From the NCBI GenBank assembly GCA_017937285.1, contig JAGBDU010000038.1:7795-71794 (forward strand): DNA of 64,000 nucleotides. The letters run 5' to 3'. Of the stretch, positions 25,674-34,184 are shown piece by piece (the stretch's first letter is position 1; the number at the start of each line of letters is the position of its first letter). Below the pieces are notes generated by a model, which was not told the origin of the DNA, did no database searches, and saw only the letters and a program-made list of their open reading frames with translations. The position numbers and the translations under genes were made by a program. This DNA comes from Clostridia bacterium (GTDB lineage Bacteria > Bacillota > Clostridia > TANB77 > CAG-508).

Positions 25674-26636
25674 ATGAAGAAAAGTTTAAAATGTTTAATT
25701 TTTATAATGATTATTTTATTGGTAAGTAATTTTAATAGTATGGTATTTGCTTGTGAAGAAGATTATCTAGATAACTGGATGCAAGATGAAGATTATTGTT
25801 TTTACTTTGATATATATAAGGGCATTAGTCCAGAAAATGTATTTATGGAAGTTGGAGAAACAAAAGATGTAAAGAAAATATTGTGTTTTACATCTGCAGA
25901 TTATGATTATATATATGACGAATCTAGTCAAGAATGGATAGAGCAAGGAAAACAATTTGACATCGTTTTAAATAAATTATTAGTAAAATCTTCAGATGAC
26001 AGTTGTATTAGCATTATTATTAATGAAAATAAAATGGACGGTATTACAGAAATGCAATTAAAAGCAAATAAACCAGGAGAGTGTGAGATATATGCTGATT
26101 ATTATTACAATAATAAACATTATGAGATTCAAACGACATTTTTTGTAAAGGGTAACAAGCAAGATGATAATATAGCAGATAATACAATAATTAATGATAA
26201 TAAACAAATAGAAAATAAGATTCCTGAAGAAGTTAAAAAAGATACAACTAATGAAACACCAGTAAAAGTCGAAAATACTACACCACAAAAATCAAATGAA
26301 AACACAGTAAATACTTCCAAAAATACAAATTCTAATAATTCAACTATAACTAAACCAAATAATGAAAAAATAAATAAAACAGAAGAACAAGAAGAAAAAG
26401 AAGATAAAAATGAAATTGATGCTGATGATAAAAATAAAATAAATGATGATAAAGTAGAGAAAAATGAAATTACTACAGTTACTACTAACGAAACACAAAT
26501 AATTGAAAATTCAAAATCAAATAAAGATGAAAAAACAAGTAAAGTAAATATTATAATTATAGTTGTTAGTATTATACTAATATTAACAGGTGTTACAATA
26601 TTTGCAAGAATCTTAATTAAACGTAATAATGAATAA
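25674..26636 (+). CDS. surface-anchored protein (signal peptide, Ig-like domain, N/K/E/T-rich linker, C-terminal TM anchor)
   Basis: N-terminal signal LIFIMIILLVSNFNSMVFA, low-complexity middle region, C-terminal IIIIVVSIILILTGVTIFARILIKRNNE. Confidence 0.7.
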   Translation: MKKSLKCLIFIMIILLVSNFNSMVFACEEDYLDNWMQDEDYCFYFDIYKGISPENVFMEVGETKDVKKILCFTSADYDYIYDESSQEWIEQGKQFDIVLNKLLVKSSDDSCISIIINENKMDGITEMQLKANKPGECEIYADYYYNNKHYEIQTTFFVKGNKQDDNIADNTIINDNKQIENKIPEEVKKDTTNETPVKVENTTPQKSNENTVNTSKNTNSNNSTITKPNNEKINKTEEQEEKEDKNEIDADDKNKINDDKVEKNEITTVTTNETQIIENSKSNKDEKTSKVNIIIIVVSIILILTGVTIFARILIKRNNE

Positions 26637-29868: not shown

Positions 29869-30822
29869 TTATAATGAAAATAAATCGTAAGCGTTTTCAA
29901 AAAGTATTTTGTTTCTGTCTTTCTCAGTAATATTTAAAGTGCATATTACCTTAAGCTCATCCTTAGAATTTCCCCATGGAGAATCTGTGCCAAATAATAT
30001 TTTATTAGCACCAACATACCGCAAAGCGATATTGTAAATATCTAATGGAGAATCTAAACACATGTGATTGCCAAATGATGATTCTTGGTGCTTAAACATA
30101 AAAGTAGAAGGACAGCAATCTATAAATACATTTGGCATGTTTGCAATTTCTTCTAGATATTGTGGAAAAAGCTGAGCTGCATGTGCTATTACTACTTGGT
30201 TTTTTGGATGATTTTTTGCAAAGATAAGAGCATTTTCAGTAGATTCAAGCGACCTTGTACCAGTATGAATAAGAAATGGTAACTTAGTGCTTAAATGTAG
30301 CTCTTTTACTGATGCTTGATTTGTCCATGGATGCAATTTATAACCTACAAACTCGTTTGCAAAATTATGCTCAAAAAAATTGATTTCTTGTTGAATTGTA
30401 GAATTACAAATGCTTAAGAAGACGAATGGCTTTATTTTAAAGCGCAGGCTCTGTGTCCGCTTCAAAAGTTCAATATTATACTTCCTTACAGGATCAATTC
30501 CTGTATAAATAATTGTATTGCAAGTTTTACAATATATGGATAAAAAATTATTGCTTTGAACAATTGCAGTTCTATGTTTCTTTGAATAGGTACAATCAGA
30601 ACAATTTTCCATATTGTTGTTTATGCTTTCACATTTTGGGCAAGATATTGAACAATCAGATGGGCATCGAAAAATATCCAATTTAGGATTTAAAGAGGGA
30701 AGTGCAATTGAAATACCAGCTGTATCCATTTCATGCAAAAATTGCTTTAAGTTGTAATCGTTGTAGAAAAAGCAATTACTGCTAAATGGATTGATGTGCA
30801 AATGTGTGTTTACAATAGGCAT
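29869..30822 (-). CDS. amidohydrolase-2 (TIM-barrel metal hydrolase) family protein with a Cys-rich insertion
   Basis: N-terminal NTHLHI (HxH) and C-terminal ILFGTDSPW. About 60 inserted residues carry CPSDC..CPKC...CSDC...CKTC. GGAGG RBS; G+C richer than the flanks. Confidence 0.75.
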   Translation of the reverse strand: MPIVNTHLHINPFSSNCFFYNDYNLKQFLHEMDTAGISIALPSLNPKLDIFRCPSDCSISCPKCESINNNMENCSDCTYSKKHRTAIVQSNNFLSIYCKTCNTIIYTGIDPVRKYNIELLKRTQSLRFKIKPFVFLSICNSTIQQEINFFEHNFANEFVGYKLHPWTNQASVKELHLSTKLPFLIHTGTRSLESTENALIFAKNHPKNQVVIAHAAQLFPQYLEEIANMPNVFIDCCPSTFMFKHQESSFGNHMCLDSPLDIYNIALRYVGANKILFGTDSPWGNSKDELKVICTLNITEKDRNKILFENAYDLFSL

Positions 30823-30923: not shown

Positions 30924-31048
30924 TCAAGTTGGGGACGGAGATTTTTTGGAGGTGTCATTGGGGACGGAGATTTTTGACACAAACTCCATTTGTGTCAAAA
31001 ATCTCCGTCCCCAATGACACCCCAAAAAAATCTCCGTCCCCAACTTGA
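30924..31048. repeat. 125-bp near-perfect palindromic element (60-nt arms, 5-nt loop), two TTGGGGACGGAGATTTTT copies per arm
   Basis: Base-by-base pairing of 30924-30983 with 30989-31048 gives 58/60 complementary positions. It shares the core TCAAGTTGGGGACGGAG with the element at 38724. Confidence 0.9.
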
Positions 31049-31130: not shown

Positions 31131-31631
31131 ATGATAAGAGAAGGAAAACTAAGTGATGCAGATCAAATTTCAAAAATAAAAGTAGAATCATGGAAAGCCA
31201 CATATAAAGATTTGATGCCGGACAATATATTAAAAGATATAACATTCGAAAAAGAAAAAGAAAAATTTATAAATAAATTTGGCAAAAGACGAATAGTTGT
31301 ATATGAAGAAAATGACGAAATATTAGGATACTCTTTTTTTGGAAAAAGACAAAATTTGAACCAAGAAAATATGGCAGATTATACATCAGAAATATATGCG
31401 TTATATATAAAAAATGATTATAGAAGAAAAGGAGTAGGAACAAAAATTATACAACACATATGTAATACTTTAAAAGAAGAAAATAATGATAAGGTATTAT
31501 TGTGGTGTTTAAAAGGCAATCAAGGCGCAATAGATTTTTATAAGAAAAATGGTTTTGAATATTTAAAAGATAAAGCACAAGAACTAAATGGCATAAATGT
31601 AGAAGAGCTAAGTTTTGGAAAAAAATTATAA
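31131..31631 (+). CDS. GNAT family N-acetyltransferase
   Basis: 166 aa, RRKGVGTK (R-x-x-G-x-G) motif, GAGGAGGG RBS. First gene of the radical-SAM operon. Confidence 0.85.
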   Translation: MIREGKLSDADQISKIKVESWKATYKDLMPDNILKDITFEKEKEKFINKFGKRRIVVYEENDEILGYSFFGKRQNLNQENMADYTSEIYALYIKNDYRRKGVGTKIIQHICNTLKEENNDKVLLWCLKGNQGAIDFYKKNGFEYLKDKAQELNGINVEELSFGKKL

Positions 31632-31644
31632 AAGGAGTATCTTT

Positions 31645-31845
31645 ATGAATTATAAGTTAACTAGATATGTGTCATATAAAGAAAAAAATAATATTATAGC
31701 TGTTTATTCGAATTTCAATCTAATGTTTTTTAAAGGTGATACTGCAATGTGGTTTAAGAAAATTGTAAATAAGGAAAATATAGATGAAATTCCAAAAAAA
31801 TATTTAGAATATTTACAAAGGAAAGAAGTGATAGAGCTTGATTAA
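31645..31845 (+). CDS. small PqqD-like protein (candidate RiPP recognition element / peptide chaperone)
   Basis: AAGGAG then ATG at 31645, 66 aa. Its size, its position directly before the rSAM genes and the pattern ...NNIIAVYSNFNLMFFKGDTAMWFKKI...IDEIP..YLEYLQRKEVIE fit the PqqD/RRE fold. The assignment is by eye only. Confidence 0.45.
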   Translation: MNYKLTRYVSYKEKNNIIAVYSNFNLMFFKGDTAMWFKKIVNKENIDEIPKKYLEYLQRKEVIELD

Positions 31846-32908
31846 TGGATTTTCAAGAAATGAAATTGCAGATTTAATTTGGGAAAAGCCATATTTTACT
31901 CAAATAGAGCTAACTAGAAATTGCAATTTTTCATGTAAATTTTGTTTTGAAAATTGTGATTATGGAAAAAAGTATGAAGATAAATCGTTAGATGAATGGA
32001 AATATGTAATAGATAATTTATATTCGCTTGGGGTAAAACACTTGCATTTTTCCGGAGGAGAAAACTTTTTATATAAGTACTATAAAGAGCTATTACAATA
32101 TGCAAAACAAAAAGATTTTAGAGTGCTAGTAAATACAAATGGTTATTTTGATATAACAAATGTTTTAGATTATGTAGATGATTTTGTTTTTTCTGTTCAT
32201 GGTTATAAAGATGTTCATGACGAAATAGTAAACAAAAAAGGTGCTTTTGATAAAGTAGAAAAGAACATAGAAATAGCTGTAAATGCCAATAAAAATGTTT
32301 CAATAAATAGTGTTTTGATAAAAGAAAACTTAAATGATTATTTAAATTTGTATAATTATTTTTATGGAAAATATAAAAATAAAGTTAAATATTCACCAAC
32401 TTTGGCAATTCCATGTAAAACTGGTAAAAAAATTGATAATCTATCAGTAGATTTAAATAAAGAAAATATGGATATATATCTTAATATTTTAAATACTGTA
32501 GGTGAGCAAAATCTGGTGTATAAACATGGACTACATGGTTTGTGTAGCCTAGATAGAAATGAAAATGACTTCTTTATGCCAGTATGTGCAGCAGGTAAAA
32601 GTAAACTTATTATAAAATATAATGGAAACGTGTATCCTTGTAATTTTTTTCAAACTGATGAATATTTATGTGGTAATGTATTTCAACAAGATTTAAAAGA
32701 AATTTGGAAAAATGGAAAAGGATTTAATGTATTTAGGTCATATTATTTATGTAATGATATACCTGATGAATGTCAAAGCTGTAAAAAGAAAAATAATTGT
32801 TATTCAGGATGTAGAGCTTGGACCAAAAGCTACATAAATGGGGATATGAGTATTAAAAAGGAAAGAGATGATAGATGTGAAATTATCAATGCATATATTA
32901 GAGCTTGA
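31838..32908 (+). CDS. radical SAM enzyme with a C-terminal SPASM domain (maturase 1)
   Basis: CNFSCKFC (CX3CX2C), SGGE, and SPASM CQSCKKKNNCYSGC (CX2CX5CX3C) preceded by CAAG...GNVYPC. TTG start overlaps the previous stop. Confidence 0.9.
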   Translation: MINGFSRNEIADLIWEKPYFTQIELTRNCNFSCKFCFENCDYGKKYEDKSLDEWKYVIDNLYSLGVKHLHFSGGENFLYKYYKELLQYAKQKDFRVLVNTNGYFDITNVLDYVDDFVFSVHGYKDVHDEIVNKKGAFDKVEKNIEIAVNANKNVSINSVLIKENLNDYLNLYNYFYGKYKNKVKYSPTLAIPCKTGKKIDNLSVDLNKENMDIYLNILNTVGEQNLVYKHGLHGLCSLDRNENDFFMPVCAAGKSKLIIKYNGNVYPCNFFQTDEYLCGNVFQQDLKEIWKNGKGFNVFRSYYLCNDIPDECQSCKKKNNCYSGCRAWTKSYINGDMSIKKERDDRCEIINAYIRA

Positions 32909-33848
32909 AATAACAACTAGATGTAACTTAAACTGCTTACATTGCTATAATAGAGGCTATGAAAATATGGATATGCCATATGAGCAGATAATAAAATATA
33001 TAAACTTCGCTAACGAAAATTCAGTAAGTACTTTAGTAATTTCTGGAGGAGAAGCAAGTTTGCATAAAGATTTTATGAAATTATGCGAATATTTAGAGCA
33101 AGAAAGACCTAAATTAACTAATATTTCAAAAATAGTATTACAAACTAATGGATATATTTCTAATATGGATATTACTAAATTAAGAGGATTTGATTACATA
33201 CATTTAAGTTTTGATTTAGATGACAACAAAATTAGAAAAATCGAAGCGGATAAAACAATAGAATTAGCAAAAAAAATAAAATCTGCAGGAATTTCACCAT
33301 ACTTTTTTACAACAGTACATAAAAATAATGTGAATCACATTGATGAAATAGTTAAATTAGCTAATGATAATGAAATACGAATTGCATTCAACTTTTGTAT
33401 AGATACTGGCAGAAACAAAGAGGTTTTATTAAGTACTGAAGAAAAAATATTTGCTATAAAAAAATTATTACAATATGAAAAAGAAGGCAAAATAAGTAAA
33501 TTACGAAACCCATATGTAAATTCATATAAAGAGCTTTCTTCAGATGATGATAATTTTAGAATAAAAGGTGGATGTACAGCAGGAATTGCAGCATGTAGTA
33601 TATTAGCTAATGGTGATGTTATACCATGTCCATTTTTTAGAGAAGTATGTGGAAATGTAAATGAAAATAAATTAGAAGATATTTGGTTTAATTCTGAAAT
33701 GTTAAAAGAGCTTAGATATAGAAAAAAGTACGAAACCTGTGGTGATTGCAAATACCTAGCTTATTGTGGTGGATGCAGAAAATCTGCATACGAAACATCT
33801 CATAAGTTAAATGGATTTGATAAAAATTGTATTATGATAGGGAGGTGA
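32868..33848 (+). CDS. radical SAM enzyme with a C-terminal SPASM domain (maturase 2)
   Basis: CNLNCLHC (CX3CX2C), SGGE, and SPASM CGDCKYLAYCGGC (CX2CX5CX3C) preceded by CTAG...GDVIPC. The start may instead be the ATG at 32889. Confidence 0.9.
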   Translation: MIDVKLSMHILELEITTRCNLNCLHCYNRGYENMDMPYEQIIKYINFANENSVSTLVISGGEASLHKDFMKLCEYLEQERPKLTNISKIVLQTNGYISNMDITKLRGFDYIHLSFDLDDNKIRKIEADKTIELAKKIKSAGISPYFFTTVHKNNVNHIDEIVKLANDNEIRIAFNFCIDTGRNKEVLLSTEEKIFAIKKLLQYEKEGKISKLRNPYVNSYKELSSDDDNFRIKGGCTAGIAACSILANGDVIPCPFFREVCGNVNENKLEDIWFNSEMLKELRYRKKYETCGDCKYLAYCGGCRKSAYETSHKLNGFDKNCIMIGR

Positions 33849-33852
33849 TATC

Positions 33853-33918
33853 ATGGAAGAATGGCAAATGGATATTGAGGAATACAACGAATGTGGATGT
33901 GCAATAAACGGAGATTAA
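33853..33918 (+). CDS. 21-aa candidate RiPP precursor peptide MEEWQMDIEEYNECGCAINGD
   Basis: Absent from the ORF track because it is too short. GGGAGGTGA SD lies 5 nt before the ATG, 4 nt after the maturase-2 stop. A terminator follows about 30 nt downstream. Confidence 0.45.
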   Translation: MEEWQMDIEEYNECGCAINGD

Positions 33919-33946: not shown

Positions 33947-33980
33947 AAAGAAAGCAGATAAAATTATTCTGCTTTCTTTT
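33947..33980 (+). terminator. rho-independent terminator closing the rSAM operon
   Basis: AAAGAAAGCAGA-9 nt-TCTGCTTTCTTT followed by T. Confidence 0.8.
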
Positions 33981-34109: not shown

Positions 34110-34184
34110 TTAATCATTTTCTTGATTTTTTTGATTACCACTTTTGTTACCATTTTTATTTCCTTTTTTCTTCTTATCTGCCAT
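34110..34184 (-). CDS. 24-aa hydrophilic basic peptide MADKKKKGNKNGNKSGNQKNQEND
   Basis: Strong GGAGGTG SD 7 nt before the internal ATG at 34184. The longer 63-aa track ORF has no RBS. Confidence 0.35.
   Translation of the reverse strand: MADKKKKGNKNGNKSGNQKNQEND

Follow-up and report, generated by a model that had tools for sequence, protein, structure and literature searches.

Two adjacent radical-SAM (rSAM) genes in a Clostridial genome raise the question of what their products act on, and whether a 21-codon open reading frame (ORF) lying directly behind them encodes that substrate. The locus was studied within a window of 64,000 nucleotides, the term being used here for the whole stretch of DNA that was analyzed. 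An initial annotation, prepared from the letters of the window, had singled out this ORF as the likely substrate peptide. Our analysis supports that reading through several lines of comparative evidence: the ORF is conserved despite relocation within its operon, it accumulates synonymous changes, its Shine-Dalgarno site is kept, and a partner with a predicted RiPP recognition element (RRE) fold is encoded beside it. We put the probability at roughly 85% that translation of the 21-codon ORF gives the precursor (substrate) peptide for a compact rSAM peptide-maturation operon, which consists of a GNAT gene, the RRE, rSAM-1, rSAM-2 and the peptide gene, together with a divergent amidohydrolase gene. 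The features on which the argument draws are as follows.

29869-30822, minus strand: Amidohydro_2-family metal hydrolase of 317 aa with a Cys-rich insert, divergent from the operon
31131-31631, plus strand: GNAT acyltransferase of 166 aa, predicted to be a likely tailoring enzyme of the peptide
31645-31845, plus strand: predicted stand-alone RRE of 66 aa, a three-strand sheet plus helices
31838-32908, plus strand: radical SAM/SPASM enzyme 1 (rSAM-1) of 356 aa with a CNFSCKFC motif and a SPASM domain, its gene overlapping both neighbors
32868-33848, plus strand: radical SAM/SPASM enzyme 2 (rSAM-2) of 326 aa with a CNLNCLHC motif and a SPASM domain
33840-33845, plus strand: Shine-Dalgarno site GGGAGG, within the last codons of rSAM-2, with a 7-nt spacer to the peptide ATG
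33853-33918, plus strand: predicted precursor peptide gene of 21 aa, starting with ATG and ending with TAA, translation MEEWQMDIEEYNECGCAINGD
33947-33979, plus strand: intrinsic-terminator-like hairpin with a 12-bp stem and the U-rich tail UUUUACUU, marking the operon end

The ORF was present exactly as first described in its coordinates, start and stop, and it forms the final gene of a tightly packed plus-strand operon. Its ATG (33853) lies 4 nt beyond the rSAM-2 stop codon (TGA, 33846-33848), which agrees with the spacing reported earlier; the distance of the ATG from GGGAGGTGA, given there as 5 nt, is really 4 nt, a trivial slip. The peptide had been called strongly acidic, and MEEWQMDIEEYNECGCAINGD indeed carries seven acidic residues and no basic ones. 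A terminator had been expected within about 30 nt, and the hairpin begins 29 nt past the stop codon of the peptide gene. This hairpin has a folding energy of -16.5 kcal/mol (z -4.9; equally stable structures in 0 of 200 shuffles) and was missed by a simple terminator scan because its loop is 9 nt long. An unannotated 24-aa Lys/Asn-rich ORF on the minus strand (34110-34184; MADKKKKGNKNGNKSGNQKNQEND), with a perfect GGAGGTG site 7 nt upstream, converges on this terminator region. A similar ORF, MADKKKKGNKNGNKNSENNKQD, occurs with the same ribosome-binding site approximately 1.3 kb from the peptide gene in a human-gut contig (L048), a distance that implies an indel between the L048 and window strains.

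Taken alone, a 21-codon ORF is not beyond chance at this site, given the 153 ORFs of 20 aa or more that overlap the 26-40 kb section of the window, an AT-rich region of approximately 26% GC. This abundance is the point in favor of regarding the ORF as a frame that arose by chance within conserved terminator or intergenic DNA. What places the ORF beyond chance is the conservation of its motif across loci. Homologues of rSAM-2 were found in uncultured gut Clostridia (63-98% identity, with L048 at 98%) and in many Patescibacteria (40-48%), and the carriers of the family include gut microbiomes of human, chicken and water deer alongside the many Patescibacteria. A total of 106 loci was fetched, and the motif search covered 105 sequences, namely 104 of the fetched loci and the window. 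The pattern W.[MI].{8}GC..N..* occurred exactly once in each of 72 of the 105 sequences, always on the rSAM strand, and the ORFs bearing it encode 39 distinct peptide sequences; no match was obtained in 20 shuffles of 814 kb. When loci with an intact cluster and sufficient flanks were considered, 61 of 62 had the peptide ORF on the strand of the enzymes, located either downstream of rSAM-2 (20 loci) or upstream of the 66-aa gene (41 loci). The lone exception, L086, has a deletion at the peptide site (L086:2650-3040) that takes the C-terminal half of the peptide in a cluster that looks decayed; L088 is otherwise similar. The cluster at L035:3300-6000 also looks decayed, with a truncated rSAM-1 match and a split rSAM-2 match, and neither an RRE nor a peptide was detected.

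The place of the peptide gene shifts with lineage. In the clade of the window as a whole, it lies 4 to approximately 240 nt downstream of rSAM-2; the Clostridia at 63-77% identity carry a 20-23-aa ORF there (e.g., MQDWQMDIEEYNECGCEMNTD or M(D/E)R(Q/E)DWEMSVEEFNDCGCAMNGD), separated from the rSAM-2 stop by 21 to approximately 240 nt. The Clostridial clade at approximately 50% identity has M(N/G)ENWQMDVQEFEEAGCAVNSD between the GNAT gene and the 66-aa gene, and L105 and L106 have MEIWQMDVEEFDNAGCAVNND between an rSAM2::GNAT fusion and the amidohydrolase gene. In Patescibacteria, an ORF of 31-49 aa (ending, for example, in ...DWKMSVKDFEKNGCLVNGD) lies directly upstream of the 66-aa gene and carries a long, variable, leader-like N-terminal extension of 10-30 residues. 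In an Absconditabacterales locus (L036:3642-3698), the peptide frame is open only under genetic code 25 (UGA = Gly), the lineage's own, which is an independent sign that the frame is translated. A Shine-Dalgarno-type site, mostly GGAGGTG and in two cases GGGGGTG, lies upstream of the start in every Clostridial copy that begins with ATG. The initial annotation had allowed that the DNA might be conserved only as a terminator region; the opposite was seen, with the peptide being kept while its place in the operon changes.

The substitution pattern addresses the same issue. The 23-aa Clostridial form is represented by 11 distinct DNA sequences, which were compared over a conserved segment of 18 residues. 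The segment is identical in 10 of the 11 sequences and has one residue different in the eleventh, with many third-position differences among the genes (pS, 0.70; pN, 0.004; pN/pS, 0.006). Across all Clostridia, the pN/pS of the peptide was 0.22. The invariant Gly is encoded by all four of its codons, and the invariant Cys and Asn by both of theirs. To judge from these comparisons, selection on the peptide gene evidently acts at the level of the protein and not of the DNA. A chance frame would be hard to reconcile with a pN/pS of 0.006, with an amino acid sequence retained through relocation, with a motif absent from shuffled DNA, with a gap to the preceding gene that ranges so widely, or with an Rfam scan of the operon region that found no RNA family at the ORF or at the terminator. 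We therefore regard this alternative as having almost no chance of being correct; the chance-ORF and terminator-DNA readings were rejected on the strength of relocation and synonymous substitution. A reading of the ORF as an attenuator or leader peptide was likewise rejected, as the ORF is the last in the operon in the window's clade. The comparative data indicate that the 21-codon ORF is a genuine gene whose conservation extends from gut Clostridia to Patescibacteria.

Alignment of the 39 peptides revealed two conserved blocks: a leader-like W-x-M-x-(V/I)-x-x-(F/Y), spanning W4-Y11 in the window peptide and showing an alternating hydrophobic pattern as in a strand, and a core, G-C-x-x-N-x-(D/N), spanning G15-D21. 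The leader-like and core-like halves proposed for the peptide at the outset coincide with these blocks. Trp, Gly-Cys and the Asn three residues past the Cys are invariant in the 39 distinct peptides; these residues were part of the search pattern, and a looser search with GC..N.{1,2}* recovered the identical set of peptides. The last residue, which the pattern left unconstrained, is Asp in 23 peptides and Asn in 16, and in every peptide the invariant Cys is followed by exactly five residues. The C14 position is more variable (Asn, 24; Ala, 6; Cys, 5; Lys, 3; Ser, 1), and the position of Tyr11 is occupied by Phe in 24 of the 39. Among the residues that had been listed as possible cross-link sites, C16, Asn19 and the terminal Asp/Asn are thus conserved, whereas C14, which is not Cys in 34 of 39 peptides, and Tyr11 are not; with Tyr11 so often replaced, the adjacent Glu/Tyr pair that had been compared with PqqA also lacks conservation, and the comparison is not supported. 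The unusually conserved core suggests a constrained function.

The peptide gene is genetically locked to the RRE gene and the two rSAM genes, and these four constitute the invariant core of the system. rSAM-1 is always paired with rSAM-2, and in the window their genes overlap by 41 nt. Both enzymes matched PF04055 and PF13186 above threshold, with CxxxCxxC motifs in their translations. Neither reached the cut-off of any curated NCBIfam family: the top sub-threshold scores were 124 bits for NirJ2 (cut-off, 500) and 97 bits for MftC (cut-off, 265), and the best sub-threshold matches were peptide maturases (MftC, PqqE, WgkB, StsB and SkfB). The nearest solved structures by sequence were SkfB, which was the closest, PqqE and SuiB. 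The cluster motifs begin at residues 29 and 19, leaving no room for an N-terminal RRE in either enzyme. By analogy with PqqD/PqqE and MftB/MftC, a stand-alone RRE would be predicted in such a cluster.

The 66-aa protein is a candidate for this role. Searches against Pfam and NCBIfam, a profile search of PDB sequences and a member-by-member Pfam search returned only noise for this protein. A profile search identified 26 homologues, all unnamed or labeled 'hypothetical', and the family is small (approximately 78 clusters at 50% identity among 1.84 billion proteins). An AF2 model from the single sequence had low confidence (pLDDT, 62), and no fold could be read from its search; the model built on the alignment of homologues was used instead (pLDDT, 94.7; pTM, 0.81). 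The best Foldseek match of the latter was TbiB1 with its leader peptide bound (5v1v_A; TMq, 0.87; probability, 1.00; E, 0.011), and almost all further matches were RREs, including the PbtF RRE (8t19), McbB, MccB, ThcOx, LynD, a lasso B1 protein and SuiB; the E-values are modest (0.011 at best), with a probability of 1.00 and TM-scores of 0.81-0.87. According to its predicted structure, the 66-aa protein has an RRE fold. RREs are binders of substrate leaders, and the cluster can be said to supply what a substrate peptide needs, because a stand-alone RRE-fold protein is present.

These results also bear on the possibility that the small protein is an accessory subunit or regulator of the rSAM pair, such as a scaffold, a chaperone or a metal- or cluster-binding partner, rather than their substrate. 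A very short and very acidic protein with one invariant Cys would suit such a role, and constant co-occurrence with the enzymes is expected of a subunit too. The RRE-fold protein, however, is fused to the tailoring GNAT in relatives and belongs to a class that binds substrate leaders; the variable N-terminal extensions of 10-30 residues in Patescibacteria are typical of precursors and not of subunits; and, as in PqqA and MftA, the spacing between the conserved segment and the C-terminus is constant. We consider a subunit or regulator very improbable and retain the precursor peptide as the preferred reading.

The genes around the invariant core are also informative. In one Clostridial clade, GNAT is fused to the N-terminus of the RRE (L005-L015, L025, L049, L051 and L097, e.g., L005:3169-3867); P0183, P0208 and P0212 likewise combine the two in one polypeptide. 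In another clade, it is fused to the C-terminus of rSAM-2 (P0062-P0073 and L105:2321-3823); because of these fusions to the RRE or to rSAM-2 in relatives, GNAT is tied to the same substrate. The amidohydrolase gene adjoins the cluster in all Clostridial loci but the L001-L004 lineage, on either side and on either strand, and in L105 and L106 it is co-directional and lies within the operon. The window enzyme contains a Cys-rich insert at residues ~57-103 (CPSDCSISCPKC...CSDC...CKTC) with a weak zinc-ribbon match, and the L105 homologue is shorter, at 307 aa. Accessory sets differ by clade: GNAT and amidohydrolase accompany most Clostridial loci, and a PP-loop ATPase, a third rSAM enzyme and a methyltransferase occur in Patescibacteria. 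The PP-loop ATPase (SGGxDS) was found in L105 (L105:134-1096), L106 and L091 in addition to Patescibacterial clusters. Upstream of the peptide gene, Patescibacterial clusters encode, besides this ATPase, a third rSAM enzyme that is extended at its N-terminus by approximately 115 residues and a SAM methyltransferase (L033:542-3558; L038:777-3539), the latter two being fused in L033; the best match of the methyltransferase was to daptide methyltransferase, below the cut-off. None of these three accessory genes was found within the window, and a 320-aa unannotated ORF (25674-26636) that was considered as the counterpart of the L105 PP-loop ATPase was rejected as not homologous. Because accessory genes differ, the final products may differ by clade.

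The wider surroundings are of a housekeeping nature in the window, whose flanks contain uvrA, murD and secA; beside the cluster in L001 are a gene of the phosphoglucomutase family and one for a class-I aminoacyl-tRNA synthetase, and in L105 it is accompanied by two genes for class-I aminoacyl-tRNA synthetases. Genes for an exporter, a protease or immunity were found neither in the cluster nor near it. Downstream of one Patescibacterial cluster (L038:6088-9470) lie genes for a HisKA_7TM membrane protein, a FeeM-like N-acyl amino acid synthase and a 7TM histidine kinase, neighbors that could hint at a signaling role at this single locus. Between the amidohydrolase and GNAT genes of the window, a near-perfect 125-nt palindrome (30924-31048) was observed, composed of two 60-nt arms that are 97% complementary, each of which contains TTGGGGACGGAGATTTTT twice. 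The palindrome occurs only once in the window, where it overlaps the operon's best promoter-like site (TTGACA at 31045), and unrelated sequence takes its place in L048; the matches of Rfam miRNA models to it were dismissed as artefacts of the long palindrome.

Assembling these elements, we propose the following scheme, in which RRE-peptide binding, the modified residues, the bond types and the order of steps are all inferred. The N-terminal W-x-M-x-(V/I)-x-x-(F/Y) would act as a minimal leader that docks as a beta-strand on the stand-alone RRE, and the RRE would then present the C-terminal (N/C)-G-C-x-x-N-x-(D/N)-COOH to the two SPASM enzymes. Radical chemistry is expected to be centered on the single invariant Cys, at or near Cys16. 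By analogy with ranthipeptides (NxxcB, PapB) and sactipeptides, the most likely reaction would be formation of an S-C thioether with Asn19 or the terminal Asp/Asn, an assignment we offer tentatively. A second modification might be introduced by the other enzyme, or both enzymes might act jointly; two thioether-forming enzymes are not obviously needed, because only one Cys is invariant. GNAT may then acylate the peptide, probably by acetylation of the N-terminal amine, which is suggested as the target because the window peptide has no Lys, and the amidohydrolase may trim, open or release the product. The presence of one invariant Cys together with two SPASM enzymes suggests that the chemistry may lie outside known classes.

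A secreted RiPP is less clear-cut as the product, because the cluster has no protease, exporter or immunity gene. The ORF would still encode a substrate if its peptide instead gave rise to a small metabolite or redox cofactor, as PqqA does to PQQ and MftA to mycofactocin, and not to a secreted antimicrobial RiPP. In such a pathway, G-C-x-x-N-x-(D/N) would be cross-linked, excised by the amidohydrolase and capped by GNAT. Several observations are in line with this: the core block, and not the leader alone, is conserved across phyla, with five residues always following the Cys; the RRE stands alone, as PqqD and MftB do; exporter, protease and immunity genes are absent from a cluster that sits amid housekeeping genes; and the tailoring enzymes (amidohydrolase, GNAT, PP-loop ATPase and methyltransferase) are of a small-molecule type. 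The system is, moreover, kept in the very small genomes of Patescibacteria, in which dispensable multi-enzyme pathways are rarely retained. On the other hand, a universal cofactor would not usually come with accessory sets that vary by clade, co-occurrence of a dependent oxidoreductase family with the cluster was not observed, the family itself is rare, as the count of RRE clusters given above indicates, and the cluster lies outside both the PQQ and the mycofactocin families. That the invariant C-terminal G-C-x-x-N-x-D/N gives rise to a small molecule or cofactor not known before, made from the peptide by two SPASM enzymes and a minimal RRE and common to host-associated Clostridia and ultra-small Patescibacteria, seems to us rather unlikely; if true, this heptapeptide pathway would be one more ribosomally encoded route to a cofactor-like product, next to those of PQQ and mycofactocin. 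The wider reading of the ORF as a precursor peptide of an rSAM maturation operon accommodates either kind of product.

The family of peptides and products does not appear to have been described previously. Neither the 21-aa peptide nor eight homologues matched any model in Pfam or NCBIfam at E-values up to 10, and four short Clostridial peptides (21-23 aa) were not found among 15 billion predicted proteins, a collection in which the longer Patescibacterial peptides are labeled only 'hypothetical protein'. Six representative C-terminal motif strings were found in no paper of the library searched, and topical searches on CPR/Patescibacteria rSAM RiPPs, on the combination of RRE, GNAT and amidohydrolase, and on rSAM-RiPP atlases did not turn up the system. 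Genome mining based on PqqD annotation may have skipped the system because Pfam misses the RRE. The peptide family is thus one that standard methods overlooked, and what had been an orphan rSAM pair in a human-gut Clostridial genome becomes a complete, testable pathway consisting of a peptide, an RRE, two maturases, an acyltransferase and a hydrolase.

Comparison with characterized systems places the cluster near several of them. It resembles the PQQ system (PqqA/PqqD/PqqE) in having a precursor of approximately 22 aa whose C-terminal core is conserved, a small, separate RRE protein beside a SPASM enzyme that itself lacks one, and no exporter. The differences are nevertheless substantial: against a PqqE (TIGR02109) cut-off of 381 bits, rSAM-1 scored 87.5 and rSAM-2 77; the peptides do not contain E-x3-Y, and their Tyr is mostly Phe; PqqB and PqqC are absent; there are two rSAM enzymes and not one; and the RRE of the window is undetected by the Pfam PqqD model. 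With mycofactocin (MftA/MftB/MftC), the cluster shares a stand-alone RRE, critical residues at a fixed distance from the C-terminus and tailoring enzymes of the small-molecule type, and MftC was the best NCBIfam match of rSAM-1. Here too, the scores of rSAM-1 (97 bits) and rSAM-2 (81 bits) fall far below the MftC (TIGR03962) cut-off of 265 bits, the peptides end in N-x-D or N-x-N and not in the G-V-Y of MftA, and homologues of MftD, MftE and MftF are missing.

Ranthipeptide and sactipeptide systems (SCIFF/Tte1186, CteB, PapB, NxxcB, SkfB, AlbA and StsB) offer a Cys-containing core, with Asn and Asp as possible acceptors, and SPASM maturases as points of similarity. Their cores are multi-Cys, whereas the present peptides have one invariant Cys, and the present enzymes do not carry the fused N-terminal RRE; the scores of 50-74 bits against the maturase families of these systems lie far below the cut-offs of 300-850, and a thioether would be hypothetical here. 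An adjacent rSAM/SPASM pair at one peptide locus is also found in two-rSAM sactibiotics, namely thuricin CD (TrnC/TrnD) and ruminococcin C (RumMC1/MC2). TrnC and TrnD of thuricin CD are reported to act synergistically (PMC12093266, PMC8188230). Unlike these sactibiotics, which have long multi-Cys precursors, fused RREs and exporters, the present cluster has one 21-aa precursor with one conserved Cys.

The triceptide system HaaA/HaaN likewise combines an rSAM-modified peptide with a GNAT, and W-x-M could formally be a three-residue cyclophane site. The GNAT of the window, in contrast, scored 18.9 bits against a HaaN (NF041716) cut-off of 250, and no triceptide maturase family was among the best 25 NCBIfam matches listed for each rSAM enzyme; W-x-M fits better as an RRE-binding strand than as a cyclophane site. 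By profile score and gene content, the cluster falls outside the PQQ, mycofactocin and triceptide HaaN families. Collectively, the components of RRE-dependent rSAM peptide maturation are all present, in the form of a linked precursor gene, an RRE and SPASM rSAM enzymes, and modification of the peptide is predicted from this arrangement. The phylogenetic spread of the system is unusual, and its biosynthetic logic is a familiar one.
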